Assembly: GCF_947581785.1 (NCBI RefSeq)
Contig: NZ_CANPVO010000036.1
Span: 15,490-79,489, forward strand
Source: Candidatus Palauibacter polyketidifaciens
Lineage (GTDB): Bacteria; Gemmatimonadota; Gemmatimonadetes; Palauibacterales; Palauibacteraceae
DNA: 64,000 nucleotides
Direction of reading: 5' to 3'
The translations under genes and the position numbers were made by a program. Position 1 is the first letter of the stretch; each line of letters starts with the position of its first letter. Shown one piece after another: positions 5,090-59,377 of this stretch. The notes below the pieces were generated by a model. It saw only the letters and a program-made list of their open reading frames with translations. It was not told the origin of the DNA and ran no database searches.

Positions 5090-6718
5090 ATGGACGACAA
5101 CATGCTTTCCCCAACCCCGCGCCGCCACGCCGGACGGGCGCTCCCGGCCGTCCTCACCGCGGCGGGCCTGCTTGCGGGGACGGCCGCCGCCCGGCCCGCC
5201 GCAGCCCAGAGTTACGACCTCGTCATCCGCGGCGGCACCCTCGTGGACGGTTCGGGTGGGCCGCCGCGCGCCGGCGACGTCGCGATCGACGGGGACCGGA
5301 TCGCGGCCGTGGGCGACTTGGGCGCGGCCACCGCCGGCCGGGTCATTGACGCGAACGGCCTGCACATCTTCCCCGGCTTCATCGACACGCATTCCCACGC
5401 CATGCCGGCGCTGCTGCGCGACGAACTGCGGACGGCGCGCCCCCTCCTCGCGCAGGGGATCACGACGATCTTCGCGAACCCCGATGGCGGCGGCACCGTC
5501 GACCTCGCCGACCAGCGGGCGCGGATTCGGGCCCCCGGCGTCGGGGTGAACGTGGGGCAACTCATCGGGCACGGGAGCGTCCGCCGCGCGGTGCTCGGGA
5601 TGCAGGCGCGCGAGGCCACGCCCGAGGAACTCGACCGCATGCGGACTTTCGTGCGCGACGGGATGGACGGGGGCGCCTTCGGGCTCTCCTCCGGCCTCTA
5701 CTATTCGCCGGGGTCGTACGCCCCCACCGGCGAGGTCGTCGAACTCGCGAAGATCGCGGCCGGGTACGGAGCCGTGTACCAGAGCCACATCCGCGACGAG
5801 TCGGACTATTCGATCGGCCTGCTCGGGGCCGTCGACGAGGTCATCGAGATCTCGCGGGGCTCCGGCATCACCGGCGTCGTCACTCACGTCAAGGCGCTCG
5901 GTCCCCGGGTATGGGGCGAGTCCGCCGAGGTCGTCCGCCGCATCGAGGCCGCCCGGGCGGAAGGTCTCCCGGTCTACGCGGACCAGTATCCCTACGGGGC
6001 CTCCGGCACGAGCATTATCGGAGCCCTGGTCCCCCGCTGGGCGCTCGCCGGCGAGGGCGGCGACCTGTACGAGCGCATCGAGGATCCCGGTGAACGCGCC
6101 CGGCTCGTGCCGGAGATGTGGGAGAACCTCGACCGCCGGGGCGGCGCCGACCGGCTCATGCTCCAGGGCGGCCCCCACGGGGGCCGGACGTTGGCCGATG
6201 TCGCGGAGGAGCGCGGGGTGGACGCGATCGAGACCGCGCTCGCCCTGCTCGTGGAGGCGCGCGGAGGCGGCGGAGGCACCGGCCTGACCTCCTTCAACAT
6301 GAACGACGAGGACATCGAGCGCTTCATGGCGCAGCCCTGGATGATGACCGCGTCCGACGGTTCGCTCTGGGTGCCGGGCGAAGGACACCCTCACCCGCGC
6401 GGCTTCGGCGCCTTCCCGCGGCGGATCCGCAAGTACGTGATGGAGGAAGGCGTCACCACGCTCGAACAGGCGATTCACGCCATGACTGCGCTCCCGGCCC
6501 GCGTGTACGGGATCGAAGGTCGCGGCGTGCTCCGAACAGGCGCGGTCGCCGATGTCATCGTCGTGGACCTCGAGCGGTTCCGCGACACCGCCGAATACGA
6601 CGACCCGCACGGTCTCGCCGAGGGGGTCGAGTACTCCCTCGTCAATGGTACGCTCGCGATCGACGGGGGCCGCTTCACGGACGCCCTCGCAGGCGAAGCG
6701 CTCGTCAAGGCACGATAA
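5090..6718 (+). CDS. N-acyl-D-amino-acid deacylase (D-aminoacylase) family amidohydrolase.
   Basis: TAT-like signal RRHAGRALPAVLTAAGLLAGTAAARPAAAQ. SYDLVIRGGTLVDG...DGDRIAAVG...FPGFIDTHSH. ATG at 5090. It is divergent from the CapA gene across a 103-bp intergenic region. Confidence 0.8.
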   Translation: MDDNMLSPTPRRHAGRALPAVLTAAGLLAGTAAARPAAAQSYDLVIRGGTLVDGSGGPPRAGDVAIDGDRIAAVGDLGAATAGRVIDANGLHIFPGFIDTHSHAMPALLRDELRTARPLLAQGITTIFANPDGGGTVDLADQRARIRAPGVGVNVGQLIGHGSVRRAVLGMQAREATPEELDRMRTFVRDGMDGGAFGLSSGLYYSPGSYAPTGEVVELAKIAAGYGAVYQSHIRDESDYSIGLLGAVDEVIEISRGSGITGVVTHVKALGPRVWGESAEVVRRIEAARAEGLPVYADQYPYGASGTSIIGALVPRWALAGEGGDLYERIEDPGERARLVPEMWENLDRRGGADRLMLQGGPHGGRTLADVAEERGVDAIETALALLVEARGGGGGTGLTSFNMNDEDIERFMAQPWMMTASDGSLWVPGEGHPHPRGFGAFPRRIRKYVMEEGVTTLEQAIHAMTALPARVYGIEGRGVLRTGAVADVIVVDLERFRDTAEYDDPHGLAEGVEYSLVNGTLAIDGGRFTDALAGEALVKAR

Positions 6719-6731
6719 CTCAGGAGCAGGC

Positions 6732-9700: not shown

Positions 9701-9911
9701 CGCCGAACTCGACGCTCGCGTGAACGACGCGGCGGGCAGCTATCCGCGCCCCATGCTCCTGAGCCAGCTCAACTATCTCGCCGGCATGACCGGGCGGGCC
9801 GACCAGGCGCCGGGGGCCGACGCATACGAGCGCCACGAGGAGCTCCAGGAGGAGGTCAGCGAGGTCGGCGACTGGTTGCAGACGCTGGTCAGGAGGCTGA
9901 CCGCAACCTGA
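6732..9911 (+). CDS. Large secreted BNR/Asp-box and sortilin-VPS10-type beta-propeller repeat protein (glycoside-hydrolase-like, 1059 aa).
   Basis: RBS AGGAGCAGG followed by ATG. Signal peptide MRFSAAIPGTRTVLAPLVAVAALAGPLVAQ. Repeated S-x-D-x-G-x-T-W Asp-box motifs (STDAGETW, TTDGGDTW, SDDAGETW, STDGGETF, TRDGGRTW, TEDAGETW, FDDGATW). Confidence 0.8.
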   Translation: MRFSAAIPGTRTVLAPLVAVAALAGPLVAQDGASAGELPAGVRNPAPSADTVDPSLFGGLSFRFVGPSRGGRVTAVEGHRSHPHTFYQGATGGGVWKTTNYGMTWENISDGYFRSPSIGHIEAADSDPNIIYVGTGSDGIRSNIIIGKGIHKSTDAGETWTHVGLEDGGQIASVKAHPDNPDLVYAAAMGNPFINNETRGVYRSSNGGLDWERILFTSDSVGAVDLEFHPADPNVIYAGMWRAQRRPWSIISGASDEDGIWKTTDGGDTWRRITAGLPDGLIGKVDFSVSADMPDRVYALVEAPEPIEGLYRSDDAGETWELVNDDPRNQLMHRPFYFANVIADPMDGNVVYVLNLSTWKSTDGGETFSTIPNVHGDDHDLWINPDDSRIMVHGSDGGGVVTLDGGQTWSPVNNQPTAELYQVDVDDRFPYWLYAGQQDDAYTVAVPSRQPSLSAPGGPDAYWRSPGGCETGPAVPKPGDPDVVYANCKGRFGVYNQRTGQEQQYYVGAVNMYGTNPANLPYRFQRVVPIEVSPHDPNLVYHGSQYVHRTRDGGRTWERISPDLTAFPPERQMVSGGPITRDATGEEHYSTLYVIEASPHDPEVIWTGANDGPVYVTLDGAASWENVTPADMPPEGRINSIDISRHDPDKVYVAGYRFLLGDFRPYVYRTEDAGETWTLLTDGTNGIPADVPVRVVREDPDRAGLLYAGTEFGLFISFDDGATWQSFQLDLPLTPVTDIEVYRQDLALSTMGRGFWVLDDVTPLHEIGADGSVAAGGGAHLFEGRPQYRTRPGRNSGFEWASNTARPDYRGGGADINYWISPELGPDETVRVEILDADGEVIRTYASGGGGSAGRAGGPAMQRMAPRGGTMRGVSSAPGVHRLRWDLRSQGEGRGGPMVPPGEYTVRLSAGNMTVEAGLELRIDPRVAAEGVTVADLEEQYRFNLAVRETMADAREVADGIDGLRDQIEEARADAGGGRNETLDELAAELAELDARVNDAAGSYPRPMLLSQLNYLAGMTGRADQAPGADAYERHEELQEEVSEVGDWLQTLVRRLTAT

Positions 9912-9919
9912 GATAGCGC

Positions 9920-10762
9920 ATGCCCGACATCAATCTCATCGCTCACCCGCTGAGGGGTACGGCCTTCGGCACGGCGCTCGACCTGTGCCTGATCCTCGCC
10001 GCGCTGGTCTGGCTCCTGGGCGTCGTCACCCGCGAGTTCTCGTGGATCGACCGCCTGTGGTCGATATGCCCGGGCGCGTACTGCCTCATCGTGGCCTTCG
10101 GGACGAACTTCGCGTCGCCCCGCGTGAACCTCATGACGTTCCTCGTCGTGCTCTGGGGCGCGCGTCTGACCTTCAACTTCGCGCGCAAGGGCGGATACCA
10201 GCCGGGCGGCGAGGACTACCGCTGGGCCATCGTCCGGGAGAAGGCGGGGCCGGTGGGCATACAGGTCCTCAACCTCACGTTCATCAGCTTCGGGCAGATG
10301 CTGCTGATCTGGTGGTTCACCTCCCCGGTGCACCAGGCTGCGGTGTGGAGCGAGACGCCGCTCGGATGGCTGGATCTCCTGACCGCCGCGGTGTTCCTCG
10401 TGCTCTTCGTCGGCGAGGCCGTGGCCGACGAGCAGATGTGGCGCTTTCAGCAGGACAAGAAGCGGCGGATCGCGGCCAGAGAAGATGTGGCGCAGCCGTT
10501 CATGACTTCCGGATTGTTCCGCTATTGCCGCCATCCCAACTTCTTCTGCGAATTGGGCATGTGGTGGGTGTTCTACCTGTTCGCCGTCTCCGCCTCGGGT
10601 CAATGGCTCCACTGGACGGGCCTCGGCTTCATCCTGCTCACCGCGCTGTTAATTCCGTCGATGCGCCTCACCGAAACGATCTCCGCGTCGAAATACCCCG
10701 GATACCGCGACTACCAGGCCACCACGCCGGCGCTGATCCCCCGACCTGTGTCCAAGGCCTGA
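9920..10762 (+). CDS. DUF1295 / steroid 5-alpha-reductase-like membrane protein.
   Basis: 280 aa, multi-pass. GLFRYCRHPNFFCELGMWW is the NAD(P)H-binding signature of this family. ATG at 9920. Confidence 0.75.
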   Translation: MPDINLIAHPLRGTAFGTALDLCLILAALVWLLGVVTREFSWIDRLWSICPGAYCLIVAFGTNFASPRVNLMTFLVVLWGARLTFNFARKGGYQPGGEDYRWAIVREKAGPVGIQVLNLTFISFGQMLLIWWFTSPVHQAAVWSETPLGWLDLLTAAVFLVLFVGEAVADEQMWRFQQDKKRRIAAREDVAQPFMTSGLFRYCRHPNFFCELGMWWVFYLFAVSASGQWLHWTGLGFILLTALLIPSMRLTETISASKYPGYRDYQATTPALIPRPVSKA

Positions 10763-38791: not shown

Positions 38792-41008
38792 CTAGAAGAC
38801 GACGCGATAAGCCACGCTAACAGATCTCCCGGCCTCGGGCATGATCTCCTTCACGCGCGACAAGTGGTTTCTGTACACTGCGTTGCCAAGGTTCTCCCCC
38901 CGTACGGTGATCACGTTCAGCCGCCCAAGAACCGTGATCCGGATGCCGGCGGAGAGATCGAACACTGTATATCCGTCAGTTGCGCTCTCAAAGGGACCCG
39001 TCCGGTCCTGGCCAGCCGCAACCCGCGTTTCCGCTTCGACGAACCAGTTGCGAGGCGCGTAGCCGACGGCGAAGTGCCCCTGCAGCGGCGGGATCAGCGG
39101 AAGCGGTTCGTCTGTCTCCACGATCCTGCCCCGGGTGTACGAAGCCACGGCCTCTACGGTCAGGTCCCCGACCAGCGCCCACTCGAGCGCGCTCTCGAAT
39201 CCCGTGAGCACCGCGTCTTCTCCCTGGAACTGGAAGATCGGCAACCGCACGCGGCTCAACTCTCCCGTCTCGAGCGGGAACACGTAGTCCGCGATGGCGT
39301 TATGGAACCACGTCACCTCGGCGTTCAGCCGGTCACCCACAAGACGCATGAACACGTCGATCCCTGTCCCGCGCTCCACCTCGAGCGACGGGTTCCCGAC
39401 CTCGAAGGCGTAGGCCGCCAGATGGGGACCCTCCGAGAAGAGTTCGTTGACGCTGGGGGTGCGGAACGCCCTGGCGACGGAAGCACCCACCGTGAAGCTC
39501 GGCGTGAGCTGCGCCAGGGCCCCAAGGGACCCGGATGCCGCACCGAACGATCTCTCGCGGATGTGGCCGATGTCGGAGGAGGGATCCTCCCGGTCGGGCC
39601 GCACGCGCACCCAGTCGTAGCGGAGGCCCGCCTCCACGCGTATCGGATTCAGATCGACCTCCTCCAGCACGAACACGGCAAAGGAGGTCTGCGTCGAGTT
39701 CGGCGTGAAGAGGGCGCCTCCGAATCCGAAGTCTTCCCGGGAACCCCGCGTTCCCACCCCTCCCGAGGAGAAGGGGCCCCAGCCGCTGTGGCGGGCGAGG
39801 ACCTCGCCGCTCACCGTCTGGCGCTCGAAGAGCGTTCCCAGGATGTCCGGGGGTTCGATCTCCCGGTGCTCGTACCACGTGTGTCCCGCGTCGACCTCGA
39901 TGCTCTCGAAAACCTCGGCGGGCCGGAGTACGCTGCGCAGCCTGGTCGCGGTCCGCTCCATCTCGACGCGCACCCCGGCGTCGTGACCCCCGACGAATCC
40001 TCCGGGGATGCCGTAGTCGTTGCCGTAGTAGCGGAAGGTCGCGCCGGCATGTCCCCAGTCGTCCACCCACGAGGTTCCGCCGGAAATCTCCCGGATATCC
40101 GTACTCGTATTCTGCAGGGGTCCGACCGGGGTCTCCAGATCGCCGCTGCTGCGACGGGAGAGCTCCAACCGCACCGGGATATGGTCCGTCACGCCATACG
40201 TGAGATTCAGGCTTCCGCTCGCCGCGTTGCTGACGCTCTGTCCCTGGAGGGTGAAGGCGCCCGTAAGGTGGTGCGGCACGGATGAGGGCACATCGTCGCG
40301 AACCACGTTGATGACGCCCCCCAGCGCGTTGCTTCCGTACAGAATCGCACCCGGTCCGCGGATCACCTCGACGCGGCGCGCCGACGATGGATCGATCGCC
40401 GTGGCGTGGTCGGGGCCGCTCGCAAACTCGTCGCCGACCCGTTCCCCATCCTCGAGCATCAGGATGCGGTCACCGCTGAGCCCCCGGATCACCGGGTGCG
40501 CAGAGGCCGGCCCCATGGTGCTCACCGCCAGCCCCGGCTCGGAGGACAACGTCTCCGCCAGGGTTCCGGCCAGACGACGCTGCAGATCCTCTCCCGCGAA
40601 TACGCTGGTCGGGCGCAGCACTTCGTTCGCCGCGCGGGCCACGACCGACCCCGTGACCACGAGGTCCGGCAGCGGGATGGGATTGGCCTCCATCGTCACC
40701 AGTACGATCTCTTCCGCCGATGCATCGACTTCCAGCGCGACCGTGCGGTAGCCCAGCCGTTCGACCCGCACCGTGTAGGTTCGCGGGCCCGGCACCGGGA
40801 GGTGGAACGTGCCGTCACCGTGCGAGACCGCCCGGCCACCCGAAGCAGCGATGGAGACCATGGCGCCGGCGAGAGGCTCGTTGGAGTCGGCATCGCGCAC
40901 GATGCCCTCGATCTCACCCGCGTGTTCCACCTGCGCGGACGAGTCGGTGGCTCCAACAGCCATTGCCAATGCGGCCGGGATCAGACCGGCCAGACGCCTT
41001 GTCACCAT
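38792..41008 (-). CDS. TonB-dependent outer-membrane receptor with N-terminal CarbopepD_reg domain.
   Basis: Signal MVTRRLAGLIPAALAMAVGATDSSAQ. CarbopepD_reg (EGIVRDADSNEPLAGAMVSIAA...YTVRVERLGY). Plug (PVIRGLSGDRILMLEDGERVGDE). 22-strand barrel ending ...SVAYRVVF (C-terminal aromatic). Confidence 0.85.
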   Translation of the reverse strand: MVTRRLAGLIPAALAMAVGATDSSAQVEHAGEIEGIVRDADSNEPLAGAMVSIAASGGRAVSHGDGTFHLPVPGPRTYTVRVERLGYRTVALEVDASAEEIVLVTMEANPIPLPDLVVTGSVVARAANEVLRPTSVFAGEDLQRRLAGTLAETLSSEPGLAVSTMGPASAHPVIRGLSGDRILMLEDGERVGDEFASGPDHATAIDPSSARRVEVIRGPGAILYGSNALGGVINVVRDDVPSSVPHHLTGAFTLQGQSVSNAASGSLNLTYGVTDHIPVRLELSRRSSGDLETPVGPLQNTSTDIREISGGTSWVDDWGHAGATFRYYGNDYGIPGGFVGGHDAGVRVEMERTATRLRSVLRPAEVFESIEVDAGHTWYEHREIEPPDILGTLFERQTVSGEVLARHSGWGPFSSGGVGTRGSREDFGFGGALFTPNSTQTSFAVFVLEEVDLNPIRVEAGLRYDWVRVRPDREDPSSDIGHIRERSFGAASGSLGALAQLTPSFTVGASVARAFRTPSVNELFSEGPHLAAYAFEVGNPSLEVERGTGIDVFMRLVGDRLNAEVTWFHNAIADYVFPLETGELSRVRLPIFQFQGEDAVLTGFESALEWALVGDLTVEAVASYTRGRIVETDEPLPLIPPLQGHFAVGYAPRNWFVEAETRVAAGQDRTGPFESATDGYTVFDLSAGIRITVLGRLNVITVRGENLGNAVYRNHLSRVKEIMPEAGRSVSVAYRVVF

Positions 41009-41168
41009 GGACAGCCTTCTTCGAGACGCAACGGCAACCGCTTCTGCTGGAGCGGCGCGGTGCATCTCGCTGAAAACGCTTCTGCGGGTAACGGGTGTTT
41101 CGGGAGACTTGCGATCCGCCTCCCACGGGACGATCGGGGGGCTTCCGGGACGACGGCCCGGAAGCGGG

Positions 41169-41663
41169 TCAGGCTCGAGGAGGGGCTCGGGGACCGCTCC
41201 CGCCGGGCGGTGTCGGGCGGCGTTGCCAGACGTTCGCGGTCGGGGTGTCGGGGCTGGTCTCGGATACCGCCGACAGCTCGATCGGTATCAGGGGAGGAAA
41301 CCCCGGCGACACGGTACGGGCCAACTGGCACAGCAGGTGGTTGTGCCCGGAGTCGCCCTCTTCGTGCTCCCCTTCAACGTGCACGACGGCGCTCGGCGCT
41401 TCGGCTTCAAGCACCGCATCCACCGCTGGCAGAATGGCGAACACCAAGGCCTGAAGGAGGACGATGGCGTGAACGCCGAGCCGGCGAAGATCCCGCGGCT
41501 GTTGAGGAGGAATCCGCTTCACAGCTATGCCGTCAGAGTATTCCGGGTGCCGCCAAAGGGCACTCCGGATCAAGTGCTGGAAGCTGCGTTCGGTGGCGGA
41601 ACGAGTCAAGTTGGCGGCCCGTCCGCATCGGGCGGTTGCCGCGGATCGCGGAACGGGTAGCAT
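41169..41663 (-). CDS. Possible small His/Cys-containing membrane protein upstream of the TonB receptor. Weak call.
   Basis: ATG at 41663. One TM (VHAIVLLQALVFAILPAVDAVL) followed by HVEGEHEEGDSGHNHLLCQ. It lies between the receptor and the divergently transcribed copC. Composition is partly shadow-like. Confidence 0.3.
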   Translation of the reverse strand: MLPVPRSAATARCGRAANLTRSATERSFQHLIRSALWRHPEYSDGIAVKRIPPQQPRDLRRLGVHAIVLLQALVFAILPAVDAVLEAEAPSAVVHVEGEHEEGDSGHNHLLCQLARTVSPGFPPLIPIELSAVSETSPDTPTANVWQRRPTPPGGSGPRAPPRA

Positions 41664-41773
41664 CCTGAAGGTGTACCCGGGACTTTTGAAGTCTCGGGAG
41701 GCTCGGGGGCAAGCGGCGGATGCGCCGTCGTTCGACCCCGGATGACTCAGCGTATCAGGATCGGGACGAGTCG

Positions 41774-42157
41774 ATGTCCAGATGGATTCGAAGAGGGGCA
41801 GCCGTCGTGGCGGCCGCCGCGTTCTCGACGGCGGGCGTCTTCGTCGGCGCGCACCTCGCCCTCGAGGCGTCGTCTCCGAAGAAGGACGCGCTGGTGACGA
41901 CCAGCCCCGAGACGGTCACGCTGTGGTTCACGGAGGCCCCGCAGATGGCCGGGACGTCCGTTCGGCTCCTGCCGAAGGGGGGCGAACCCCTCGACCTCGA
42001 GCCGGCGACCGCGGATCGGGACGACCCCAGCGTCGTCGTGCTGGAGGTCAGCGAGACGCTCGCGGACGGCGACTACGAGGTGATGTGGCGCGCCATGTCG
42101 CAGGACGGCCACACGATCCGCGGCGACTTCGGCTTCACGGTGCAAACCGCCCGCTGA
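41774..42157 (+). CDS. copC: CopC-family periplasmic copper-binding protein.
   Basis: Signal MSRWIRRGAAVVAAAAFSTAGVFVGA. The mature N-terminal HLALEASSPKKDALVTTSPETVTLWFTE is the CopC H-x-x-L-x-x-S-x-P signature. WRAMSQDGHTIRGDFGFTV. Confidence 0.8.
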   Translation: MSRWIRRGAAVVAAAAFSTAGVFVGAHLALEASSPKKDALVTTSPETVTLWFTEAPQMAGTSVRLLPKGGEPLDLEPATADRDDPSVVVLEVSETLADGDYEVMWRAMSQDGHTIRGDFGFTVQTAR

Positions 42158-42160
42158 ATC

Positions 42161-42188
42161 CCGGCCGGATCCCGGCCCCGGCCGGGAG
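42161..42188. terminator. Perfect 9-bp GC hairpin between convergent copC and the ArsC-like gene.
   Basis: CCCGGCCGG-ATCCCGGCC-CCGGCCGGG; stem 9 bp. Confidence 0.35.
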
Positions 42189-42194
42189 GCGACG

Positions 42195-42518
42195 CTACAG
42201 TTCCGCGAGCGCTTCGGCGTTGAAGCCGACCAGGAGCGTGGTTCCCGCCAGCACGATCGGCGCGCGGTACTTCCCCGTGGGCCCCTTGAGCGCATCGAGT
42301 TCGGTCTCGGCCGGGTCCAGGTCGCGCCGGCTCCTTCCCTTCGCAATGACCACGCGCTCGGCGGCCGCCAGCAGCGCCCGCACGTCGTCATCCGTGAGCG
42401 GCGACTTCGTGGTGGATCGTTCCTCCGCGATCGTCGCGCCGGTCTCGTCGAACACCGCACGGGTGCGTTTGCAGCTCGTTCAGCCCGGGCGCTGGTAGTA
42501 GAGCGTAACCTCGGTCAT
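42195..42518 (-). CDS. ArsC/Spx/YffB-family thioredoxin-fold protein with an in-frame TGA at the catalytic Cys position. Candidate selenoprotein (alternatively a nonsense pseudogene).
   Basis: GGAGA 7 nt before ATG 42518. MTEVTLYYQRPG-TGA(42480-42482)-TSCKRTRAVFDETGATIAEERSTTKSPL...RAPIVLAGTTLLVGFNAEALAEL ends at TAG 42195; the reading frame stays open across the TGA to that stop. The family motif is LYxxxxC-x-x-C (YffB NCDTCKKA; Spx CTSCRKA). Here it reads U-T-S-C. Confidence 0.6.
42480..42482 (-). other. In-frame UGA, candidate selenocysteine codon.
   Basis: It replaces the first Cys of the C-x-x-C redox motif of the ArsC-family gene. Confidence 0.5.
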
Positions 42519-42528
42519 CTCGGTCTCC

Positions 42529-43059
42529 TCAGTCTTCGGCGCGGGCGGCCAGGTATCGCTCCCTGAGCGCGTCCCGGTGGTGAAGCTCGTGGCCGGCGAT
42601 GATATGGATGAGCGCCCGCACCGTGCACTCGGCGCCGCTCGCGACTCCCCGGCGCGAGAGCGCGTCTTCGTCGAGCGAGGCGAAGAAGGCCGCGTTCGCG
42701 GTGCGCAGCGCACGGAATTCATGCAGCAGTTCCGGGATGGGACGATCGGCCGCGTTGGAGGCCGCGGCCCATTCAACCTGATCCATCCCCGGCAGCTCCG
42801 CCGAATCCGCGCGGGCGATGTGGAGCGCGCGATAGGAGAAGATCCGCTCGGTGTCGATCACATGACCCAGCACTTCGCGGCACGTCCACTTCCCCGGCTC
42901 GTACGCGAAGTGCTCGCGTTCGCCGGGGAGGCCGGAGAGAAGCGCGTCGAGTTCGTCGGGCGCCTCGCTGAGGACATCGACCAAGGGCCGGTCGGCCGGT
43001 ACGCGGTCGATGTAGGTGGAGTAGTACTCGCCGTGTTCGTCGGGTCCAGGTCGGTTCAT
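42529..43059 (-). CDS. DinB/YfiT-like (DinB_2) metal-dependent protein; the superfamily includes thiol-dependent S-transferases.
   Basis: MNRPGPDEHGEYYSTYIDRVP...WTCREVLGHVIDTERIF...IIAGHELHHRDALRERY: the His triad of the DinB_2 fold. Stop is 10 bp before the ArsC-like ATG. Confidence 0.8.
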   Translation of the reverse strand: MNRPGPDEHGEYYSTYIDRVPADRPLVDVLSEAPDELDALLSGLPGEREHFAYEPGKWTCREVLGHVIDTERIFSYRALHIARADSAELPGMDQVEWAAASNAADRPIPELLHEFRALRTANAAFFASLDEDALSRRGVASGAECTVRALIHIIAGHELHHRDALRERYLAARAED

Positions 43060-43105
43060 GGCCGGCAAGCTATCGACCTCGCCGTCCCGGCGACATCTTG
43101 TCCCC

Positions 43106-44026
43106 ATGAACCACCGCTCGATTCCCATCGCGACGGTCGTCTGTGCCCTGCTCGGAACGGCTTCGGCCGCCCTCGCGCAGGGGGCTCCGGGGGCGTGCGT
43201 CGCCCCGGGATCCTCGCTGCGCCTCGACCACGTGCCCATCGCCGTCGAAGACCTCGAGGCCCTCTCGCAGCGACTCACCGACGAGTTCGGTTTCCGGGTC
43301 CGGAGTCCCGAGCGGGACGAGAACGGTCTCGCGACGGCATCGATTCCGTTCGGCGACGGGACCCGGCTCGAACTGAGGACGATGAAACCTGCCCCTGCCC
43401 CCGGCCCCGACGCGCCGGGCACCGTGGAAGCGCAGCGTTACGCGGACCTCATCGCCGATGGCGGAGGCGGGGCGTATCTCGCGTTCTCCGGTCCGACGCC
43501 GGCGGGCGTCCTGGAGATCGCGGGCGAACTTGAACCCGAGTTGGCCGCGGTTTCGGGCGGAGCGGGCCCCCGGGTCGTCTTCCCCCGAGGCCACCCGCTT
43601 CACCCCGTGTTCTTCGTGACCTCCGATCCCGGGAGGGCGACGTCGGCGGACCCGGCGCCGCACCCGAACGGCGCCCGCGGACTCGAGGCGGTGTGGGTGA
43701 TGGTGGAAGACCCGGAGCGCCTCACGCGGTTCCTGCTCGCCTTCGGGGCCCGCGACTGCGGCCCGTCGCGACACCCCGAGCACCTGCATGGGCGCGCCGT
43801 CGGCATCCGCGGCGGCACCGTCTACGTCGTCGACGCGCGCCTCTGGATGGCCGATCCGGAGTCCGCCCCGGTCGTGTCGCTGACCGTGCGCGGCGGACCC
43901 GGGTCCGTCTCCGACAACATCGTGCTCGGCAACGCCGGCGGGCTCTGGATCGAACTGCGACCCTCCGACGCCGGCTCCGATCCGACCAATCCGGCCGGCC
44001 CGGCCGACCCCGAGGAGGACGGATGA
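43106..44026 (+). CDS. Secreted glyoxalase/VOC-like hypothetical protein.
   Basis: Signal MNHRSIPIATVVCALLGTASAALAQ. LRLDHVPIAVEDLEALSQRLTDEFGFRV resembles the VOC beta-alpha-beta-beta-beta N-terminus. Confidence 0.6.
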   Translation: MNHRSIPIATVVCALLGTASAALAQGAPGACVAPGSSLRLDHVPIAVEDLEALSQRLTDEFGFRVRSPERDENGLATASIPFGDGTRLELRTMKPAPAPGPDAPGTVEAQRYADLIADGGGGAYLAFSGPTPAGVLEIAGELEPELAAVSGGAGPRVVFPRGHPLHPVFFVTSDPGRATSADPAPHPNGARGLEAVWVMVEDPERLTRFLLAFGARDCGPSRHPEHLHGRAVGIRGGTVYVVDARLWMADPESAPVVSLTVRGGPGSVSDNIVLGNAGGLWIELRPSDAGSDPTNPAGPADPEEDG

Positions 44027-45223: not shown

Positions 45224-45673
45224 TCAGGATTCCACGACTTTGAGCCGGATTGAGATTTCGGGCTCGCGAAGATCGTACCGCAGGTGAATCCATGTTTTTC
45301 CGACCGCCAACCCCGTGATCGTCCAGGAGGAGTACAGCGCGGCGGTTGCGCTGTACTCCTCGATCCGAGCCACACTCAGGTCATCGATCGTCCAGTTCGG
45401 TCGCGCGACGAACAGATAGGAACAGTTTGAGTGGAATTCACGGTCCCTGCCCCACCGGCGCCGGTTCAGGATATGTACGCGAACCCTCTTCGATCCACCC
45501 ACTGGAACTACGATCTCATCGCCTGGTTCGAGATCTGGCTGGAGATCGATCACGGTCGAACAAGGAAACGGCAAATGCCCGGATACGACCTCGGCCCCGC
45601 CGCACGCCACCAGGAAGAGAAGCGCTACCGCGGACGGCTGCCGGACTCGCCACAAGCCCCTCACCCCGGGCAT
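45224..45673 (-). CDS. Small Ig-like (Big_2-like) lipoprotein A, tandem paralog.
   Basis: MPGVRGLWRVRQPSAVALLFLVACGG lipobox. Two Cys in the mature part. NWTIDDLSVARIEEYS...WTITGLAVGKTWI. Lower GC than genome background. Confidence 0.6.
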   Translation of the reverse strand: MPGVRGLWRVRQPSAVALLFLVACGGAEVVSGHLPFPCSTVIDLQPDLEPGDEIVVPVGGSKRVRVHILNRRRWGRDREFHSNCSYLFVARPNWTIDDLSVARIEEYSATAALYSSWTITGLAVGKTWIHLRYDLREPEISIRLKVVES

Positions 45674-45729
45674 ACGGTCTCGCCGCAGCCGGTGTCGACG
45701 GGGATCGTCCATGTGACCGAGGGTTGCTC
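45652..45729. repeat. Copy 2 of a ~77-bp direct repeat (about 95% identical to 46110-46187). It spans the stop of the upstream ORF and the start/signal-peptide codons of the lipoprotein gene.
   Basis: TCACCCCGGGCATACGGTCTCGCCGCAGCCGGTGTCGACGGGGATCGTCCATGTGACCGAGGGTTGCTC versus TCACCCAGGGCATACCGTCTCGCCGCAGCCGGTGTCGACCGGGATCGTCCATGTGACCGAGGGTTGTTC. There are 4 mismatches. Confidence 0.6.
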
Positions 45730-46131
45730 CACGACTTTGAGTCGCTTAGAGATTTCGGTGAACGGACTATGATGCCGCAAGCGGATCGATGTTTCGCCGA
45801 CTGCCAACCCTGTGATGGTCCAAACGCCTGTGCTGTATTCGACGATCCGAGCTACGTTGGGATCGTCGATCGTCCAGGTCAGTCGCGCGACTGACCACTC
45901 GGGGCAACCGCGGTAGTAGTTCGGCTCCCGGTCCGGAAGCTGCCGGATTTGCACGTGAACCCGCCGCACTTCAGCCACCCGAACTACGATGTCAAAGCGT
46001 GGTTCGACTTCGATCAGAGCCGAGCAAGGAGCCGGACTGCCCTCTAGCACCGCCTCGTCGCATGCCGCCAGTAGCGAGAGCGCTACCAGTGGTAGCAGCC
46101 GGAACCTCCGCAGCCCACTCACCCAGGGCAT
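45661..46131 (-). CDS. Small Ig-like lipoprotein B, paralog of A, carrying the same 22-aa C-terminal tail as the S8 protease.
   Basis: MPWVSGLRRFRLLPLVALSLLAACDE. TWTIDDPNVARIVEYS...WTITGLAVGETSI. C-terminus EQPSVTWTIPVDTGCGETVCPG. Confidence 0.6.
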   Translation of the reverse strand: MPWVSGLRRFRLLPLVALSLLAACDEAVLEGSPAPCSALIEVEPRFDIVVRVAEVRRVHVQIRQLPDREPNYYRGCPEWSVARLTWTIDDPNVARIVEYSTGVWTITGLAVGETSIRLRHHSPFTEISKRLKVVEQPSVTWTIPVDTGCGETVCPG

Positions 46132-46187
46132 ACCGTCTCGCCGCAGCCGGTGTCGACCGGGATCGTCCATGTGACCGAGGGTTGTTC
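46110..46187. repeat. Copy 1 of the ~77-bp junction repeat.
   Basis: See copy 2. The two copies are 458 bp apart. Confidence 0.6.
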
Positions 46188-47945: not shown

Positions 47946-48743
47946 TCAGTCCGTCGGCGGCCGCTTCGCCACGGCCTCCGAGACGGTCTCTTCCAGCAGC
48001 GGCCGCAGGTACTTCGACACGAACGACGCGAGCAGGTGCTCCGGTGCGATCCGTTCGAGTTCGGTGAGCGTGCATCCGAGCCAGGCGCGGGATCTGCGAT
48101 TCAGGGTCGCGCGGGCAAGCCCGAGATGCTCGCTCACCTTCGTCCATGTGGAACCTGCAAGACGAAGCTGGAGCGCCCGGAGCAGCACGAGCCCGCCGAT
48201 GAACGAACTCAACGTCGTCACGCCTCCCGCGTGTATCCTGAACTGCTGCGAGATCGTGATCGGAGAGCGGCGTACGGCCTGCGCCAGCTCGGCGACGTTC
48301 CGCACAGGCATGCTCCTGGCCCTCTGAAAGCTATGGACGAGGCCCGCGCGGAGGGCCGGCGGCAGCCCGGATCGCCGGACCGTCTCGGACAGGCGTGACA
48401 GCGCGACGGTGTGGCGAGCCTCCTCGACCTGGGATTGGAGTTGGGTCTGAACATCATCGAACCAGACGAGAGAGAAGATATTCACACCGCGCAACAAACG
48501 AGGGACGCTGATATCGCGATCCGTCACCAGGATGACCGGAATCAACGGGAGTCTCCGCCCGATGTCCTTGATCAGTACGATTCTGTCCTCGATGAACCGG
48601 CTCCGGCAGCCGATAATCATACAGTCGGTCCGGCTGTCGGCTGAAGTGAGTTCGCTCGCGTCGCCGACTATGATGGCGGCGTCATCAACGGTTTGCCGTA
48701 TGCGCTCGGCATCGGCGCACGTATCCGCCAGGAGCAGGATCAT
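47946..48743 (-). CDS. Transcriptional regulator: AraC-type HTH C-terminal domain with a degenerate receiver-like N-terminal domain.
   Basis: C-terminus VAELAQAVRRSPITISQQFRIHAGGVTTLSSFIGGLVLLRALQLRLAGSTWTKVSEHLGLARATLNRRSRAW fits the two-HTH AraC pattern. N-terminal MILLLADTCAD...IPVILVTD is receiver-like but lacks a clear phospho-acceptor Asp. Confidence 0.65.
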   Translation of the reverse strand: MILLLADTCADAERIRQTVDDAAIIVGDASELTSADSRTDCMIIGCRSRFIEDRIVLIKDIGRRLPLIPVILVTDRDISVPRLLRGVNIFSLVWFDDVQTQLQSQVEEARHTVALSRLSETVRRSGLPPALRAGLVHSFQRARSMPVRNVAELAQAVRRSPITISQQFRIHAGGVTTLSSFIGGLVLLRALQLRLAGSTWTKVSEHLGLARATLNRRSRAWLGCTLTELERIAPEHLLASFVSKYLRPLLEETVSEAVAKRPPTD

Positions 48744-48895
48744 TGCGATGCATACTTTTCAGGAAAGAAGGCGAGACGGCCCGGCGGCTCAATCCGCCGG
48801 ACCCAGTTCGCCGGAAACCTGAGAACGACTCGGGAGCGGGAATCGTGACACCGGCCGCCCGCACGGCGCCCGCGTCAGCCGCACCCCGGTGGCCG

Positions 48896-49882
48896 TCAGC
48901 TGGCGGCGGGGCGCACCACGATGGTGATTTCCTCATCGGCGAACAGACCGCCGTCGTCGGCGCGGCCACGGAGGATATAGGTCCCCGGCTGCTGGAAGGT
49001 CGCGGTCACCGTCCAGCGGTCATCCTCCGGCAGGTCCGGGGGGCGCCAGAGCGGCGCCCACGGCGAGTTCGCGCCGGTGCGCGTGTCCTCCCAGACCTTC
49101 ACCTGCGGCGGATCGAACGCCACCTCCCCCTCTCCGCGGTAGACGAACCACGACATGAAGAGGCCGTTCACCTTCTGCACCGTCACGCGCGAGGGGGGCC
49201 GGAGCTGGCGGCCGCTGAAGCTGGGGAACGCGTTCGCGATCGAGTCGACGCGCGCGGAGTCCTCCGCGGTCTCCGGCGGGTCGGGCGGACCCTGCCGGAA
49301 CGCCCGCAGCAGGCCGTCGTCCTCCACGGTGACGCTCACCGTGACCGGCTGGCCGACGATCGCCTCGCGCGTCCGCTCGCCCTCGAGCGTGATCTTCGGC
49401 GGTTCGTTGGACCGCATCTCGGCGTTGCTGGAACCCGCGCCGAGCGCGCCGGTCTCCGACATGATCACCGTGTTGTCGACGATGTAGTCGGGCCGCAGCG
49501 TGGCGTACGCCTTCTCGGTGACTCCGTGGCTCGTGAGCGTCCACACGAGTTCCCTGTCGCCCCAGTCGGCGGGCACGCGAACCTTGAACACGAAGCGGTT
49601 GCGGCGCGGGAGGAAGTGGGTCGGCTGCCCCCGGTCGGCGGGGCCCGGCGAGAACACGTTGTCATCCCCCACGGGGACGTCGATCTCCTCGACCCAGTTC
49701 CGGTTCATGTAGCCGAAGAGAAAGTTGAACGACCCGTCCTCGTTCTGCTCCCATCCCTCGTACGCCGGCGCGACGTTCTGTCCCCGAGCGTAGGTCTGGG
49801 CGGCGGCGGGAAGCGCGGACACGGCGAGGATCAGCCCCAGAAGCGGCACGGCCAGCGCCCCGGGCCGCGCGACCCGGGGCAT
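48896..49882 (-). CDS. Secreted hypothetical protein.
   Basis: Signal MPRVARPGALAVPLLGLILAVSALPAAAQ. 328 aa, no family recognised. Starts 20 bp after the stop of the c-type cytochrome gene. Confidence 0.6.
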   Translation of the reverse strand: MPRVARPGALAVPLLGLILAVSALPAAAQTYARGQNVAPAYEGWEQNEDGSFNFLFGYMNRNWVEEIDVPVGDDNVFSPGPADRGQPTHFLPRRNRFVFKVRVPADWGDRELVWTLTSHGVTEKAYATLRPDYIVDNTVIMSETGALGAGSSNAEMRSNEPPKITLEGERTREAIVGQPVTVSVTVEDDGLLRAFRQGPPDPPETAEDSARVDSIANAFPSFSGRQLRPPSRVTVQKVNGLFMSWFVYRGEGEVAFDPPQVKVWEDTRTGANSPWAPLWRPPDLPEDDRWTVTATFQQPGTYILRGRADDGGLFADEEITIVVRPAAS

Positions 49883-49902
49883 GGAAACCGGTTCGGCCAC
49901 GA

Positions 49903-51507
49903 TCACCGTTCCCGGTGGTCGCCGGGATCGCGGCCATCCCCGGACCCCGATTCGCCTTCGCCGGAAGACTCGGCCTCGGTGGCGGCATCGGACTGCCACC
50001 ACTCGGCGTCGGCGAAGTAGCTCATGTCGCCGTTGGCCGGGATGACCATGCAGAGCGGGCAGCCGACGACGTGGTCGTTGGGGCCGAGCGCGAGCCGGTG
50101 CCGGCGCATCGCCATCTCCTCCACGAACTGTTCATCCGACATCTCCACGCGCATGCCGAGGTCGATGAACATGTTCGCCACGGAACGGTTCCCCGAACCC
50201 TGCCAGTTGCGCGTGTCCGGGACGTTCCGGTTCGCCTCCGAGGTGTCCATGTAGCCGATGATGTGGAGGACGGTCCCCTTCGGAAGGAGCGGCTGGTGGT
50301 CCTGCGCGTAGGTGTAGCCGCGCACCCAGTTGTGGTCGTAGCCGACGCAGTTCAGCGTCTCGACGTTGAAGCCCCAGATCGCCTCGAGGCACATGCGCAT
50401 GCCGGGCGCATGCAGGTGCGGCTCGAAGGTCACGAGCTTGGTGTGCTGGTTCAGCACCTTGTAGGCGTGAAGTTCCTGCCCCGCCACCCCGGGCCGGATG
50501 TCGATGTCGCTTCCGTTGCCGAGCCCGAAGACGCTCCGCCGGTATTTCGGCTCGTAGTCCTCCGGATGGAAGCGGAACCCGATCTCCAGGTGGGCGCGCG
50601 TGTCGCGGCCGTTGGAGTGGAGGTGGACGGAGTTCGACACCACCGAGGAGCCCGCCCTGAGCAGGCGGCCCGCGTCGTCGTCGAAGAGGTCGGGTTCGCG
50701 GCCGACCTCGTGCACCGGCCAGCCGGTGTCCGTGGAGGCGCGCCGCGAGCCGGGCCCCGTCTCCTGGCCCTCGAGGACGCGCGTGCTCCAGATCATGTGG
50801 TGGACGACGAACCGTCCGCCGACCGTATGGCGCCCGCCGTGTTCCCCGTCGCGCCGCTGCGGCACGTCGTTCACCTCGCGGATCTCGACGGACTTCACGT
50901 AGCGGTCCTCGGTGAGGCCCGTGGGCACGCTCTCGATGTCCCCCCACCAGTCGGGCGCGTCGCCCTTCACGAGCACTTCGGGGAGCCTGACGATCAGGTC
51001 CGGCTCGCCCGCGGCCCAGACCACGTCGTCGTCGAACTCGAGCGCGGGCGGCAGGTTCGCCGGGTCGCCCTCGGGGGTGCCGGCGCGCCGCCAGGCGTCG
51101 AGCGCCTCGATCTCCCACTCGTCGAGCGACATGTCATCCTTGAAGTGCTGGATGCCGATGTCCTTCTCCACGTACCACGGCGGCATCGCGCCGGCCCGGT
51201 CCCGGATCTGGGTGCGGCGGGCGATCATGCTCGCGTACGGCTGGACGTCGTCGTAGGTGACGAGCGGCATCGGGGCGACGCCGTTGTCGCGGTGGCAGCG
51301 AACGCAGGCCCGCTGCAGGATCGGCGCGATGTCGCGGCTGAAGGTCACGTCGTCCGCCTCGACGCCCGGCGTCCCTGTCGCGGCATGGCGTGCGGTCGCG
51401 GCGGGCCCGCCGTCCTGCGCCGCCATCCCGCCGGCGGAGAGCAACATGAGGACGGGCAGGACGGAAGATCTCCGGGCGAGAGACAAGATCCGCGTGGTGT
51501 GCGGCAT
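49903..51507 (-). CDS. Cytochrome c domain-containing secreted protein (single CxxCH).
   Basis: AAGGAG 5 nt before ATG 51507. Signal MPHTTRILSLARRSSVLPVLMLLSAGGMAAQ. Heme site DIAPILQRACVRCHRDNGVAPMPL. 534 aa. Confidence 0.6.
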   Translation of the reverse strand: MPHTTRILSLARRSSVLPVLMLLSAGGMAAQDGGPAATARHAATGTPGVEADDVTFSRDIAPILQRACVRCHRDNGVAPMPLVTYDDVQPYASMIARRTQIRDRAGAMPPWYVEKDIGIQHFKDDMSLDEWEIEALDAWRRAGTPEGDPANLPPALEFDDDVVWAAGEPDLIVRLPEVLVKGDAPDWWGDIESVPTGLTEDRYVKSVEIREVNDVPQRRDGEHGGRHTVGGRFVVHHMIWSTRVLEGQETGPGSRRASTDTGWPVHEVGREPDLFDDDAGRLLRAGSSVVSNSVHLHSNGRDTRAHLEIGFRFHPEDYEPKYRRSVFGLGNGSDIDIRPGVAGQELHAYKVLNQHTKLVTFEPHLHAPGMRMCLEAIWGFNVETLNCVGYDHNWVRGYTYAQDHQPLLPKGTVLHIIGYMDTSEANRNVPDTRNWQGSGNRSVANMFIDLGMRVEMSDEQFVEEMAMRRHRLALGPNDHVVGCPLCMVIPANGDMSYFADAEWWQSDAATEAESSGEGESGSGDGRDPGDHRER

Positions 51508-51591
51508 CACATCGCTCCTTGCGGGAGGACTCGTTCGCAAAAGGGTACGCAACGGGCGAAGCCCCGGTCAAACGCCGCGCTAACCACTACG

Positions 51592-53004
51592 CTAGCCACC
51601 GTCGTCGCCTGAGCCACCCGGGGCGGGCGACCCCAGCGCCATTGGGGTGGTCGGCGGCAGCCGCTTCAGGATGATCGTCGGGACATCGAACTCGTCCGTC
51701 TCCACGAAGGCGACGAGGCCGCCGGGCCCGAACGCGTCGGGCATGGGCGTCTCCTCCAGCGCCAGAGTGCCTATGTACTCGCCCTCCGGCGAGAGAACAT
51801 CGATCCAACCGGCCGCTGCCTCCTCCCTTTCCGGCCCTCCGGCCACGACTGGGGCCTCAGCATCGATCTGCGCCAGGGGGTCGCTCCCCCAGCGCTGAAC
51901 CCAGATCGCCCCCTCCCACGTCGTCCGCAGGTCCCGCACGATGGGCACTTCCGGCATGAAGTCCGCGTTCGCCATTGCGTCGCGCATCCCGGCCATCATC
52001 TCCTCCAGCATCGCCGCCACCTGCGCGCGAACCTCCGGCGGGAGATCGTCGAACGACTGGCCGTTGAACTGTCCGGTAGCCGAGGCTTCCAGAGCTTCCA
52101 GCATCCGGGCCCGGGCGCGCTCCCGCAGCGATTCCGTGACGGGCTCGGGCTGGAGGGGGCGGCCGATGACACGGACCGGAGCCCCGGGGGTCGGCTGGAT
52201 CTTGATCGCGTAGGCGGAGGAATCCGAGTACGCCACGCCGCCGCCTGGGAGGACATCGAACACGAGGTCCGGCACGAACCCCATGAACGCGTCGCCGAAA
52301 GCGTCGAACATGTCCGACGGATCCGCCGCCTCCATCGTGACCTCCTGCTCCGGCTGCGCCTCCCACCCTTCCGCGAAGGGCACCGCGGTGGCCTCGTCCG
52401 CGGTGGCCTCGGCCGCGTCGGCGAGCGACGTGCGGTAGATGGTGCGGTCGCCGGCCTCGATGGACGCTTCCCCGTTGCTGAAGCGCGCGTTCGGGCTTCG
52501 AGTCAGGAACAGGGTTTCCCCCTCCCGGGCGGCGCGCACGGTCTCCGCCGAGGCGGTCTCCGAGGCGCCCTCGATCGCGAACCGGACCGTGCGCTCGAAC
52601 GACCCATCGGGGCCGAACAGGAGGTAGGCGCGGTGACCGTTGTCGACGATCACAACCCCTCCCCCGGGCCGGGCCACCATGTGCCCCACGTCGCGAAGCT
52701 CGCCCGGACCGTCGCCCCTGCGCCCGAACTCGGCCACCAGGCCTCCGACGCCATCCACGACCACGATGCGGGTGGAGGACGCGGCTTCGTCGCGGACGTA
52801 GAGCCGCCCGCCCGCATCGAAGGCCAGGTCCGCGATCTCCGTGAACGCGTCCCACCCCTCGGCGGCGATCCCCCCGATCCGGTACACCTCCTCGAAATCG
52901 GCCTGGAGCGGACGGTCCTCTGCGGGCGACGGGGCGGACGTACCCCCGGTCTCGCCCCCGCAACCCGCCAGCAGGGTGATCCACACCGCGCGGCTGAATC
53001 TCAT
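51592..53004 (-). CDS. NHL-like beta-propeller lipoprotein, distant fourth member of the family at 10.8-14.6 kb.
   Basis: Lipobox MRFSRAVWITLLAGCGG. GRRGDGPGELRDVGHMVARPGGGVVIVDNGHRAYLLFGPDG. C-terminus WIDVLSPEGEYIGTLALEETPMPDAFGPGGLVAFVETDEFDVPTIILKRL is collinear with ...[26 protein letters not shown]. Confidence 0.7.
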   Translation of the reverse strand: MRFSRAVWITLLAGCGGETGGTSAPSPAEDRPLQADFEEVYRIGGIAAEGWDAFTEIADLAFDAGGRLYVRDEAASSTRIVVVDGVGGLVAEFGRRGDGPGELRDVGHMVARPGGGVVIVDNGHRAYLLFGPDGSFERTVRFAIEGASETASAETVRAAREGETLFLTRSPNARFSNGEASIEAGDRTIYRTSLADAAEATADEATAVPFAEGWEAQPEQEVTMEAADPSDMFDAFGDAFMGFVPDLVFDVLPGGGVAYSDSSAYAIKIQPTPGAPVRVIGRPLQPEPVTESLRERARARMLEALEASATGQFNGQSFDDLPPEVRAQVAAMLEEMMAGMRDAMANADFMPEVPIVRDLRTTWEGAIWVQRWGSDPLAQIDAEAPVVAGGPEREEAAAGWIDVLSPEGEYIGTLALEETPMPDAFGPGGLVAFVETDEFDVPTIILKRLPPTTPMALGSPAPGGSGDDGG

Positions 53005-58313: not shown

Positions 58314-58322
58314 CTCCGGCGC

Positions 58323-58877
58323 ATGGAACGATTCCTGGAGTGGTTGGGGAGCACCCCGTGGAGCATCGCGCTGCTGGAGTCCACGCTCGCATGGCCGCTC
58401 ATCGAATCCTCCCACGTCCTGGCCGTGGCCCTCTTCTTCGGCACCGTGATGATGAACGATCTCCGGCTGCTGGGTTGGACGATGCGGCGCGTGCCCGTGT
58501 CCGAGGTCACCGGTCGCCTTCTCCCCTGGACCCGGATCGGTTTCGCGGTCATGGTCGTCACGGGGCTTCTCATCTTCTATTCCAACCCGGTCCGCTACTA
58601 TCACAACATCTTCTTTCGGGTGAAGGTGCTGCTGTTCGTGGTGGCGGGACTCAACGCCTTCCTGTTTCATCGGGGAATCCACCGGCGGGTGCTGGAGTGG
58701 GAGCGACTCCCCGTTCTGCCGGGCCGCGCGAAGGCGGCGGGCGCGATCTCGCTCGCGGCGTGGGCGCTCATCATCGTGGCGGGCCGACTCATCGCCTACA
58801 ACTGGTTCGACTGTGACATCCCCGGCCAGCCGGGCTGGGTGAACTGGGCGGCGGGCTGCCCCGTGGCGGGGGACTGA
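58323..58877 (+). CDS. 4-TM membrane protein with a conserved His in TM1; first of two tandem paralogs.
   Basis: ESTLAWPLIESSHVLAVALFFGTVMMNDLRLLG aligns with EAVHLLGLGLLGGAVLLADLRLLG of the next gene. It starts 10 bp after the cytochrome c' stop. Confidence 0.6.
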   Translation: MERFLEWLGSTPWSIALLESTLAWPLIESSHVLAVALFFGTVMMNDLRLLGWTMRRVPVSEVTGRLLPWTRIGFAVMVVTGLLIFYSNPVRYYHNIFFRVKVLLFVVAGLNAFLFHRGIHRRVLEWERLPVLPGRAKAAGAISLAAWALIIVAGRLIAYNWFDCDIPGQPGWVNWAAGCPVAGD

Positions 58878-59377
58878 TGGGCGGGCGTCAGTTCGCGCCG
58901 GAAGCGTGGCTCCCCTTCTTCGAGCGGCTGGAGAACACGGCCATCGGGACGGCCGTGCGAGAATCAATCTGGGCCTTCCCCATCATCGAGGCGGTCCACC
59001 TGCTGGGACTCGGGCTCCTGGGGGGCGCGGTGCTGCTCGCCGATCTCCGGCTCCTGGGGACGGGGCTCAAGCGGCAGCCGATCGCGAGCGTCGTGCGGTA
59101 CGCTCGCCCGTGGCTCGTGGCGGGGGTGGCGCTGATGTTCCTGACCGGGATCCCGCTGTTCCTGTCGGAAGCCGTGAAGTGCTACTACAACACGTCCTTC
59201 TGGGTGAAGATGATCTCGCTTCCCGTCGCGCTCGCGTTCACCTTCGGGGCCCGGAGGTGGGTGGTCGCCGCAGCGCCGGCGCGAGCGAACGGGCGGACGC
59301 GGCTCATCGCCGCGATCTCGCTCGGCCTCTGGTTCACTGTCGCCGCGGCGGGACGCTGGATCGGCTTCTCCGCCTGA
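58877..59377 (+). CDS. 4-TM membrane protein, tandem paralog of the 58323 gene.
   Basis: The start overlaps the upstream stop (TGATG). The YYH/YYN motif and TM pattern are shared with the upstream copy. Confidence 0.6.
   Translation: MGGRQFAPEAWLPFFERLENTAIGTAVRESIWAFPIIEAVHLLGLGLLGGAVLLADLRLLGTGLKRQPIASVVRYARPWLVAGVALMFLTGIPLFLSEAVKCYYNTSFWVKMISLPVALAFTFGARRWVVAAAPARANGRTRLIAAISLGLWFTVAAAGRWIGFSA

Follow-up and report, generated by a model that had tools for sequence, protein, structure and literature searches.

The window analysed here, a 64,000-nucleotide stretch of the genome of Candidatus Palauibacter polyketidifaciens (Gemmatimonadota), carries on its minus strand a short ArsC-family gene with an in-frame TGA, which had been put forward from the sequence as a candidate new selenoprotein. 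We conclude, from comparison with homologous loci, that this is very probably a functional selenoprotein gene, in which the UGA at 42480-42482 is read as selenocysteine (Sec). The proposal in the original prediction that the TGA encodes Sec, rather than being a nonsense codon, gains support from the conservation of the TGA itself, from orthologues with Cys at this position, from the in-frame conservation of the sequence upstream and from a downstream hairpin resembling a selenocysteine insertion sequence (SECIS). The gene belongs to a selenoprotein family that is already known, and its members in this lineage are almost always mis-modelled.

Conservation of the in-frame TGA

Read directly from the sequence, the gene (42195-42518, minus strand) begins at ATG 42518-42516 and consists of 107 codons, namely 12 codons (MTEVTLYYQRPG), the TGA, which would place Sec at residue 13, and a further 94 codons (TSCKRT...AEALAEL), followed by the stop codon TAG 42197-42195. 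A 10-nt spacer (42519-42528), containing a GGAGA ribosome-binding site at 42524-42528, separates it from a DinB_2-family gene on the same strand. The original prediction had described a frame that stays open across the TGA as far as the TAG, and this reading, together with its coordinates for the GGAGA, the ATG, the TGA, the TAG and the end of the upstream open reading frame (ORF), agrees with ours in full. The UGA encodes the first residue of a U-T-S-C redox motif; in a pairwise alignment it pairs with Cys10 of the CTSC motif of Spx, so that it does lie on the first Cys of a CxxC, as had been claimed. The last residue of the motif, Cys16 (TGC, 42471-42473), is presumed to serve as resolving Cys in the UxxC and is invariant in 80/80 distinct sequences.

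With Cys in place of Sec, the product passes the Pfam ArsC model PF03960 (25.4 bits, against a gathering threshold of 24, over residues 8-106), which bears out its earlier placement in the ArsC/Spx family as a protein of about 107 residues. A much higher score, 78.2 bits over residues 4-106 of 107, was given by the NCBIfam model NF041106 (ArsC_rel_Se_1, ‘ArsC family (seleno)protein’), the next model scoring 29, and NF041106 shares with the window protein both the length of about 107 residues and an N-terminal U/CxxC following strand beta-1. Among ten orthologues scored against the same model, five from the Acidobacteriota, the Zixibacteria and the Planctomycetota (the last a Cys form) reached 88-94 bits, above the curated cutoff of 85, and one reached 84.6, while those from the Gemmatimonadota and two from the Thermoanaerobaculia scored 65-78 bits; the Gemmatimonadota members, the window protein included, make up a borderline, slightly divergent branch of NF041106, with a DinB_2 partner gene. 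A truncated Palauibacter protein, MCZ0935629.1, which is 91% identical, is already named as an ArsC family (seleno)protein at NCBI.

The claim that the selenoprotein is new cannot be upheld, as NF041106 already exists and ArsC-like selenoproteins with a UxxC motif are on record: they were reported in a 2006 survey of bacterial selenoproteomes (Zhang et al. 2006, PMC1794560), appear as ‘Arsenate reductase 2, cd03032, UxxC’ in the GOS survey (Zhang & Gladyshev 2008, PMC2398784) and are listed as ‘Arsenate reductase-like protein, COG1393, UxxC’ in a 2022 review (PMC9312934). These proteins share with the window protein the ArsC/Spx thioredoxin fold and a Sec in the first position of the UxxC, and they were found through Cys/TGA pairs; they came mainly from Deltaproteobacteria and marine metagenomes, not from Gemmatimonadota. 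The likeness to the survey proteins (e.g. MAM02162.1) is one of description rather than of alignment and does not imply that they belong to the same subfamily. No new class of biology is involved, since selenoproteins of this UxxC type were known, and NF041106 was in place, before the present finding.

In order to follow the TGA through the family, we aligned 80 homologous loci, one per species representative, over query residues 1-107; with the window and two metagenome loci, these gave a set of 83 sequences. All but one of the sequences have TGA as the aligned codon (82 of 83, or 79 of 80 among the species loci), and the only TGC in the set belongs to a member of the Isosphaeraceae (Planctomycetota; locus L043). 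The carriers of TGA, whose identity to the window protein ranges from 44 to 95%, comprise Candidatus Palauibacter, other Gemmatimonadota, several orders of Acidobacteriota (Holophagales, Thermoanaerobaculia, Multivoradales and Polarisedimenticolaceae) and one genome of the Zixibacteria. The recurrence of TGA at one codon in nearly every sequence is a pattern far beyond chance. Upstream of it, the peptide pattern h-x-h-[YF]-Y-x-R-P-[GS] is kept, while the synonymous sites vary freely (Tyr-5 is encoded by TAC in 65 sequences and TAT in 15; Arg-3 by CGC in 58, CGG in 11 and CGT in 7). The sequence before the UGA is therefore under purifying selection in the same frame, and the N-terminal piece must be translated in frame with the remainder of the protein.

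From one sequence alone, a nonsense mutation in this genome, leaving a decaying pseudogene, could not have been excluded, and the original prediction had kept a nonsense mutation as its alternative. The comparison disposes of it. We found no further stops or frameshifts in any TGA-carrying locus, the same TGA occurs across several phyla and both sides of it show purifying selection; taken together, these observations exclude decay, to which we attach a negligible probability.

Full-length Cys forms came to light through the protein databases. Of the 58 homologues returned by a first protein search, nearly all had about 86 residues and matched no more than the C-terminal 80% of the query. When a Cys form was used as the seed, a second search added five full-length Cys proteins (P0059-P0063, 110-111 residues) and 63 further truncated calls, so that about 115 of the approximately 120 database homologues are truncated calls beginning past the TGA, a mass truncation that we attribute to the inability of gene callers to cross the TGA. 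It is unusual that a family should be nearly always in the Sec form, with Cys forms almost absent, and this is a modestly new point. The truncated models (P0001-P0058 and P0064-P0126) are 76-96 residues long, have a GTG or ATG start 3' of the TGA, and correspond in the window to 42195-42455 (minus strand); they are labelled hypothetical, and some are misnamed (P0088 as ‘ribosomal silencing factor RsfS’ and P0112 as ‘5-carboxymethyl-2-hydroxymuconate isomerase’). The Cys forms that were examined for their context (L083, L086, L087 and L088) adjoin an EF-G-type GTPase gene and a His_biosynth gene, an arrangement that is conserved in a Planctomycetota-like group and unlike every Sec-form context.

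One metagenome-assembled genome of the Thermoanaerobaculia has two near-identical copies of the selenoprotein gene (L036, 4001-4321, and L044, 4001-4306), about 18 kb apart on contig JASNYQ010000003.1. Upstream of ‘LFYARPS-U’ the sequence of the second copy departs from that of the first, and this copy lacks an obvious start codon, which could reflect a duplication junction or an assembly artefact.

The downstream hairpin and the reading of the UGA

RNAalifold, applied to 67 sequences, predicted a single structure, a 5-bp hairpin of the form GCACC / loop CGUGM / GGUGY. In the window it lies at 42452-42466 (minus strand) and starts 13 nt past the UGA, with its 5' arm (GCACC) at 42466-42462, its loop (CGUGC) at 42461-42457 and its 3' arm (GGUGU) at 42456-42452. 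By pair counting, 99.4% of the stem cells are paired, compared with 28-52% in controls with a slid register. The nucleotides of codons +5 to +9 hardly change across the 80 distinct sequences with TGA, reading CGC ACC CGU G(C/A)G GUG: the third-position entropies of these five codons are 0.17, 0.10, 0.61, 0.00 and 0.17 bits, against 1.25 bits for the invariant Arg-3, 1.88 bits for Arg+21 and 1.0-1.9 bits for the flanks. In the 5-nt loop, G is invariant at positions 2 and 4, and position 3 is U (85%) or G. Two sequences, L062 and L072, show a compensatory change from C-G to G-C, and the Palauibacter group, including the window, has G-U in place of a G-C pair.

The hairpin goes with the TGA. It is disrupted in all four of the Cys-form loci compared; none of L043, L087 and L088 contains the family hairpin, and in L086, which encodes the same peptide C-T-S-C-E-R-T-R-A-V-L but with ACT and GCC codons, exactly the two synonymous sites that are invariant or nearly so in the 80 Sec forms are altered and the loop-closing pair is lost. 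The original prediction would have been undermined by orthologues with TGC and no conserved RNA structure downstream; its ortholog comparison has now been made, and the near-universal TGA and the paired stem are the opposite of that outcome.

A minimal bacterial SECIS has been described as an apical hairpin of 5-6 bp, located a few nucleotides past the UGA and possessing an invariant loop G (PMC4607533). The window hairpin shares its size, position and loop G with this element, as exemplified by the upper stem-loop of E. coli fdhF, but the family has neither a conserved extended lower stem nor an evident bulged U. We propose that the hairpin is a putative bacterial SECIS, to which SelB would bind, and the consensus given above would then be an explicit, and modestly new, SECIS consensus for this ArsC-like family. 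As the family is almost always in the Sec form, with a near-identical SECIS across phyla, it could serve as a convenient marker of the Sec trait in metagenome-assembled genomes.

Two hairpins had been pointed out before, and neither is quite the conserved one. The first, CGCA-CCCG-UGCG at 42456-42467, is present and overlaps the conserved element, but its register is one base off; GAG in place of GCG, as found in half of the family, breaks the pairing of the CGCA/UGCG register. The second, GAUCG...CGAUC, falls where sequence conservation does not extend beyond Palauibacter, and is discarded. We also considered whether the stem extends further down (columns 5-7 with 32-34), but pairing there is just 76% and we make no such claim. 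In one Gemmatimonadota locus (L027, 4037-4084), the TGA is kept and the downstream sequence, GCACGCGGGCGGCGC, cannot form the family hairpin; an alternative stem, AGCGC / 9-nt loop / GCGCU, is possible there and may be a variant SECIS.

The hairpin also bears on the gene model stored in the databases. Were that model right, the TGA would terminate a leader of at most 12 residues and a separate protein of 86 residues, without Sec, would start at GTG 42455, and not only are the great majority of homologues modelled as such a short protein, but the GTG, at codon +9, is kept in 77 of the 80 sequences and can be read as a conserved start codon. However, this GTG also contributes to the conserved hairpin, being in its 3' arm, and that accounts for its conservation. 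Moreover, to judge from the structural model of the Cys form P0059 (see below), the 86-residue product would be deprived of its redox motif altogether, as well as of strand beta-1 and helix alpha-1. Across three phyla, protein-level conservation extends in frame over the 21 codons that precede the GTG, and the Cys forms are continuous proteins of 110 residues. We therefore consider the stored model very improbable. Reading through the UGA amounts to a correction of the annotation, as the gene is held nearly everywhere in the lineage as an 86-residue ‘hypothetical protein’ without its active site.

Incorporation of Sec in bacteria depends on SelB, Sec-tRNA(Sec), SelA and SelD (PMC9312934). We searched for this machinery by tblastn with E. 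coli SelA, SelB and SelD and by ARAGORN. The 64-kb window contains no tRNA genes, and the lone match to SelB, in L043, lies in an EF-G-type GTPase gene and was rejected. That the machinery was not located in the window or in the homologous loci is what could be said for a decoding of the UGA as something other than Sec, either by near-cognate read-through (as Trp, Cys or Arg) or by a lineage-specific reassignment of UGA. Against this, UGA acts as an ordinary stop next door, where the DinB_2 gene ends with TGA 42529-42531, and gene callers end ORFs at UGA throughout these genomes. The UGA occupies the site of a redox Cys, and orthologues have Cys there; simple read-through needs no structured element conserved at the position of a SECIS, and NF041106 is curated as a (seleno)protein family. 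Decoding as another amino acid thus seems hardly credible to us, and Sec remains by far the better reading of the codon.

Several results nevertheless weigh against this assignment. Genes for selA, selB, selD and tRNA-Sec were not found in the 64-kb window or in the 82 homologous loci, which total 689 kb, although this absence is to be expected if the genes are unlinked. An Rfam scan of the whole window gave zero matches, and hence no match to a general bacterial SECIS. The folding energy of single sequences 3' of the TGA is not significant (z of -0.97 and of -1.25 to -1.4), and that of the window's 38-nt stretch has a z of +0.07. The covariation is thin, amounting to one compensatory pair in two related sequences, a consequence of the stem hardly varying at all. 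Against NF041106, the window protein falls 7 bits short of the curated cutoff of 85, and the link to the DinB_2 gene is missing from the other approximately 55 loci, including most of the Acidobacteriota. As regards the RNA, the folding analysis called for in the original prediction accordingly gives a divided answer, with an energy that is not significant in single sequences and a conserved hairpin in the comparative fold; the register of the minimum free energy structure varies between sequences, and the element is found by comparative analysis only.

We infer from the pattern of conservation that the Sec machinery is encoded elsewhere in this genome. The Palauibacterales, which are widespread marine and sponge-associated Gemmatimonadota, would by implication decode UGA as Sec, a modestly new point; we found no mention of Sec or selenium in those papers on Gemmatimonadota or Palauibacter that could be searched, including the one on Palauibacterales genomes. 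We also screened the window for other genes with an in-frame TGA by means of G+C content at third codon positions (GC3), and obtained one unconvincing candidate, at 9945 (minus strand), with a screen too insensitive to recover even the true selenoprotein gene. This candidate (SSAVPKAVPLSG*AMRLMSGMRYLR) is the sole other TGA with coding-like GC3 on both sides, and probably arises as an artefact on the strand opposite the genes at 6486-10759 (plus strand).

Fold and probable function

A structural model was made with AlphaFold (AF2) for the Cys orthologue P0059, with a predicted local distance difference test score (pLDDT) of 90. The modelled protein has a core of the thioredoxin/glutaredoxin kind; helix alpha-1 carries the CxxC at its N-terminus, across from an invariant R-A-P loop. 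The corresponding residues in the window protein, R85-A86-P87 (42258-42266, minus strand), occupy invariant alignment columns and align with ‘RRPI’ of Spx, whose RRP motif is their counterpart, in a loop of the thioredoxin fold that faces the active site. In a Foldseek search, the nearest structures to the model were those of Spx (TM score 0.56-0.60), followed by glutaredoxin/NrdH, YffB and ArsC-related proteins.

The resemblance to Spx raises the question of whether the protein might act, not as an enzyme, but as an RNA polymerase-binding regulator that senses redox state through a switch containing Sec. Spx of Bacillus subtilis (PDB 1z3e, 3gfk and 6gho) is the closest solved structure both by sequence (E of 6e-5) and by fold, and shares with the window family the exact C-T-S-C motif, the R-P loop and the thioredoxin-like core. 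The identity, however, is only about 22-27%, and the two differ in the middle or insert domain, which is predicted in the P0059 model to be an alpha-helix plus beta-hairpin and is helical in Spx, with a root mean square deviation of >6 A. The window family also lacks the C-terminal tail of Spx, of about 20 residues. The models for Spx/MgsR regulators (TIGR01617 and NF002459) score 29 bits each, against cutoffs of 75 and 123, and Spx is a Firmicutes system. Selenoproteins, furthermore, are almost always catalytic redox proteins (PMC9312934). A regulatory role of the Spx kind is, on balance, distinctly unlikely.

Nor does the protein appear to be a glutaredoxin-coupled arsenate reductase of the R773 ArsC type. 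It has no match to an arsenate-reductase NCBIfam model at E<=0.1, and of the catalytic Cys and Arg triad of the R773 type, just the equivalent of Cys12, U13, and R85 of the R-A-P are evident. No ars genes were found near the selenoprotein gene in the window. As it falls short of both the Spx and the arsenate-reductase models, we take the protein to be neither.

We favour instead a selenol/thiol-disulfide oxidoreductase as the most likely function, with U13 as the nucleophile and C16 as the resolving residue. In the mechanism that we propose, the ribosome would read UGA 42480-42482 as Sec, the hairpin GCACC-CGUGC-GGUGU, 13 nt downstream, recruiting SelB carrying Sec-tRNA(Sec); both the insertion of Sec and the binding of SelB are inferred. 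The product would be a 107-residue protein of the thioredoxin/glutaredoxin fold, belonging to the NF041106 lineage of the ArsC/Spx superfamily. At its redox centre, U13-T-S-C16, the Sec would attack a disulfide or a thiol adduct, and Cys16 would resolve the resulting selenenylsulfide. In the Gemmatimonadota, the selenoprotein may serve the thiol chemistry of the DinB_2 enzyme encoded beside it.

The DinB_2 gene and the surrounding region

The upstream gene (42529-43059, minus strand) encodes a YfiT-like protein of 176 residues, of the DinB_2 family in the metal-dependent thiol-transferase superfamily, and runs from ATG 43059 to the stop codon TGA 42531-42529, 10 nt before the ATG of the selenoprotein gene. 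Its score with DinB_2 (PF12867) is 77.1 bits, well above the gathering threshold of 24.8; MST (32.1 bits) and MDMPI_N were also matched. YfiT and the other thiol S-transferases of the DinB superfamily share the DinB_2 domain with this gene, but it is not YfiT itself, as the model for the YfiT bacillithiol transferase (NF009807) gives 44.3 bits against a cutoff of 160.

A DinB_2 gene is found directly upstream, on the same strand and 0-85 nt away, in 23 of the 80 species loci, with 53-96% identity. These are all 22 of the Gemmatimonadota species loci and one from the Thermoanaerobaculia, giving 26 sequences with the window, L001 and L002. The two-gene module suggested in the original prediction therefore stands for these loci, and not for the family as a whole: adjacency to DinB_2 is a lineage-specific association, and a modestly new one. 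Co-transcription of the two genes in the Gemmatimonadota is plausible, and we regard it as probable; a functional coupling of the selenoprotein with the DinB_2 protein is speculation. A more specific idea, which we consider rather unlikely, is that the pair constitutes a dedicated selenium-dependent module for thiol transfer and reduction in detoxification, in which the transferase would depend on the selenoprotein, as its obligate redox partner, to regenerate or supply its thiol. If true, this would be a pairing not described for enzymes of the DinB superfamily.

The order of genes in this part of the window is a metallo-beta-lactamase-fold gene, Glyoxalase_3, DinB_2, the selenoprotein gene, a convergent CopC gene, a TonB-dependent receptor gene and a pyrroloquinoline quinone (PQQ) dehydrogenase gene. 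A scan of 41900-43500 for promoters and terminators gave no matches and was uninformative. Clustering for neighbours outside the Gemmatimonadota gave just spurious clusters of high-GC ORFs, and in the loci without DinB_2 no neighbour was seen to be conserved. The copper-binding CopC gene (41690-42154, plus strand), which converges on the selenoprotein gene, adjoins the TonB-dependent receptor gene (38795-41287, minus strand), whose product carries a CarboxypepD_reg domain; the arrangement of CopC and receptor is kept in about 20 loci of the Palauibacter group, a context in which a metal-related role is possible.

Further along the window, we noted two tandem paralogous ORFs at 45224-45712 and 45661-46170 (both minus strand), of 162 and 169 residues, which both start MDDP-x-RHRLRRD-x-MP, share a C-terminal ‘...WTITGLAVG.T.I.LR...RLKVVE’ and have no Pfam match at 1e-5. 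The region 47949-53004 (minus strand) contains four ORFs (270, 411, 554 and 470 residues) with coding-like GC3 and no Pfam match at E<=1e-5, and a tandem pair of DUF6644 genes lies at 58314-58874 and 58817-59374 (both plus strand).

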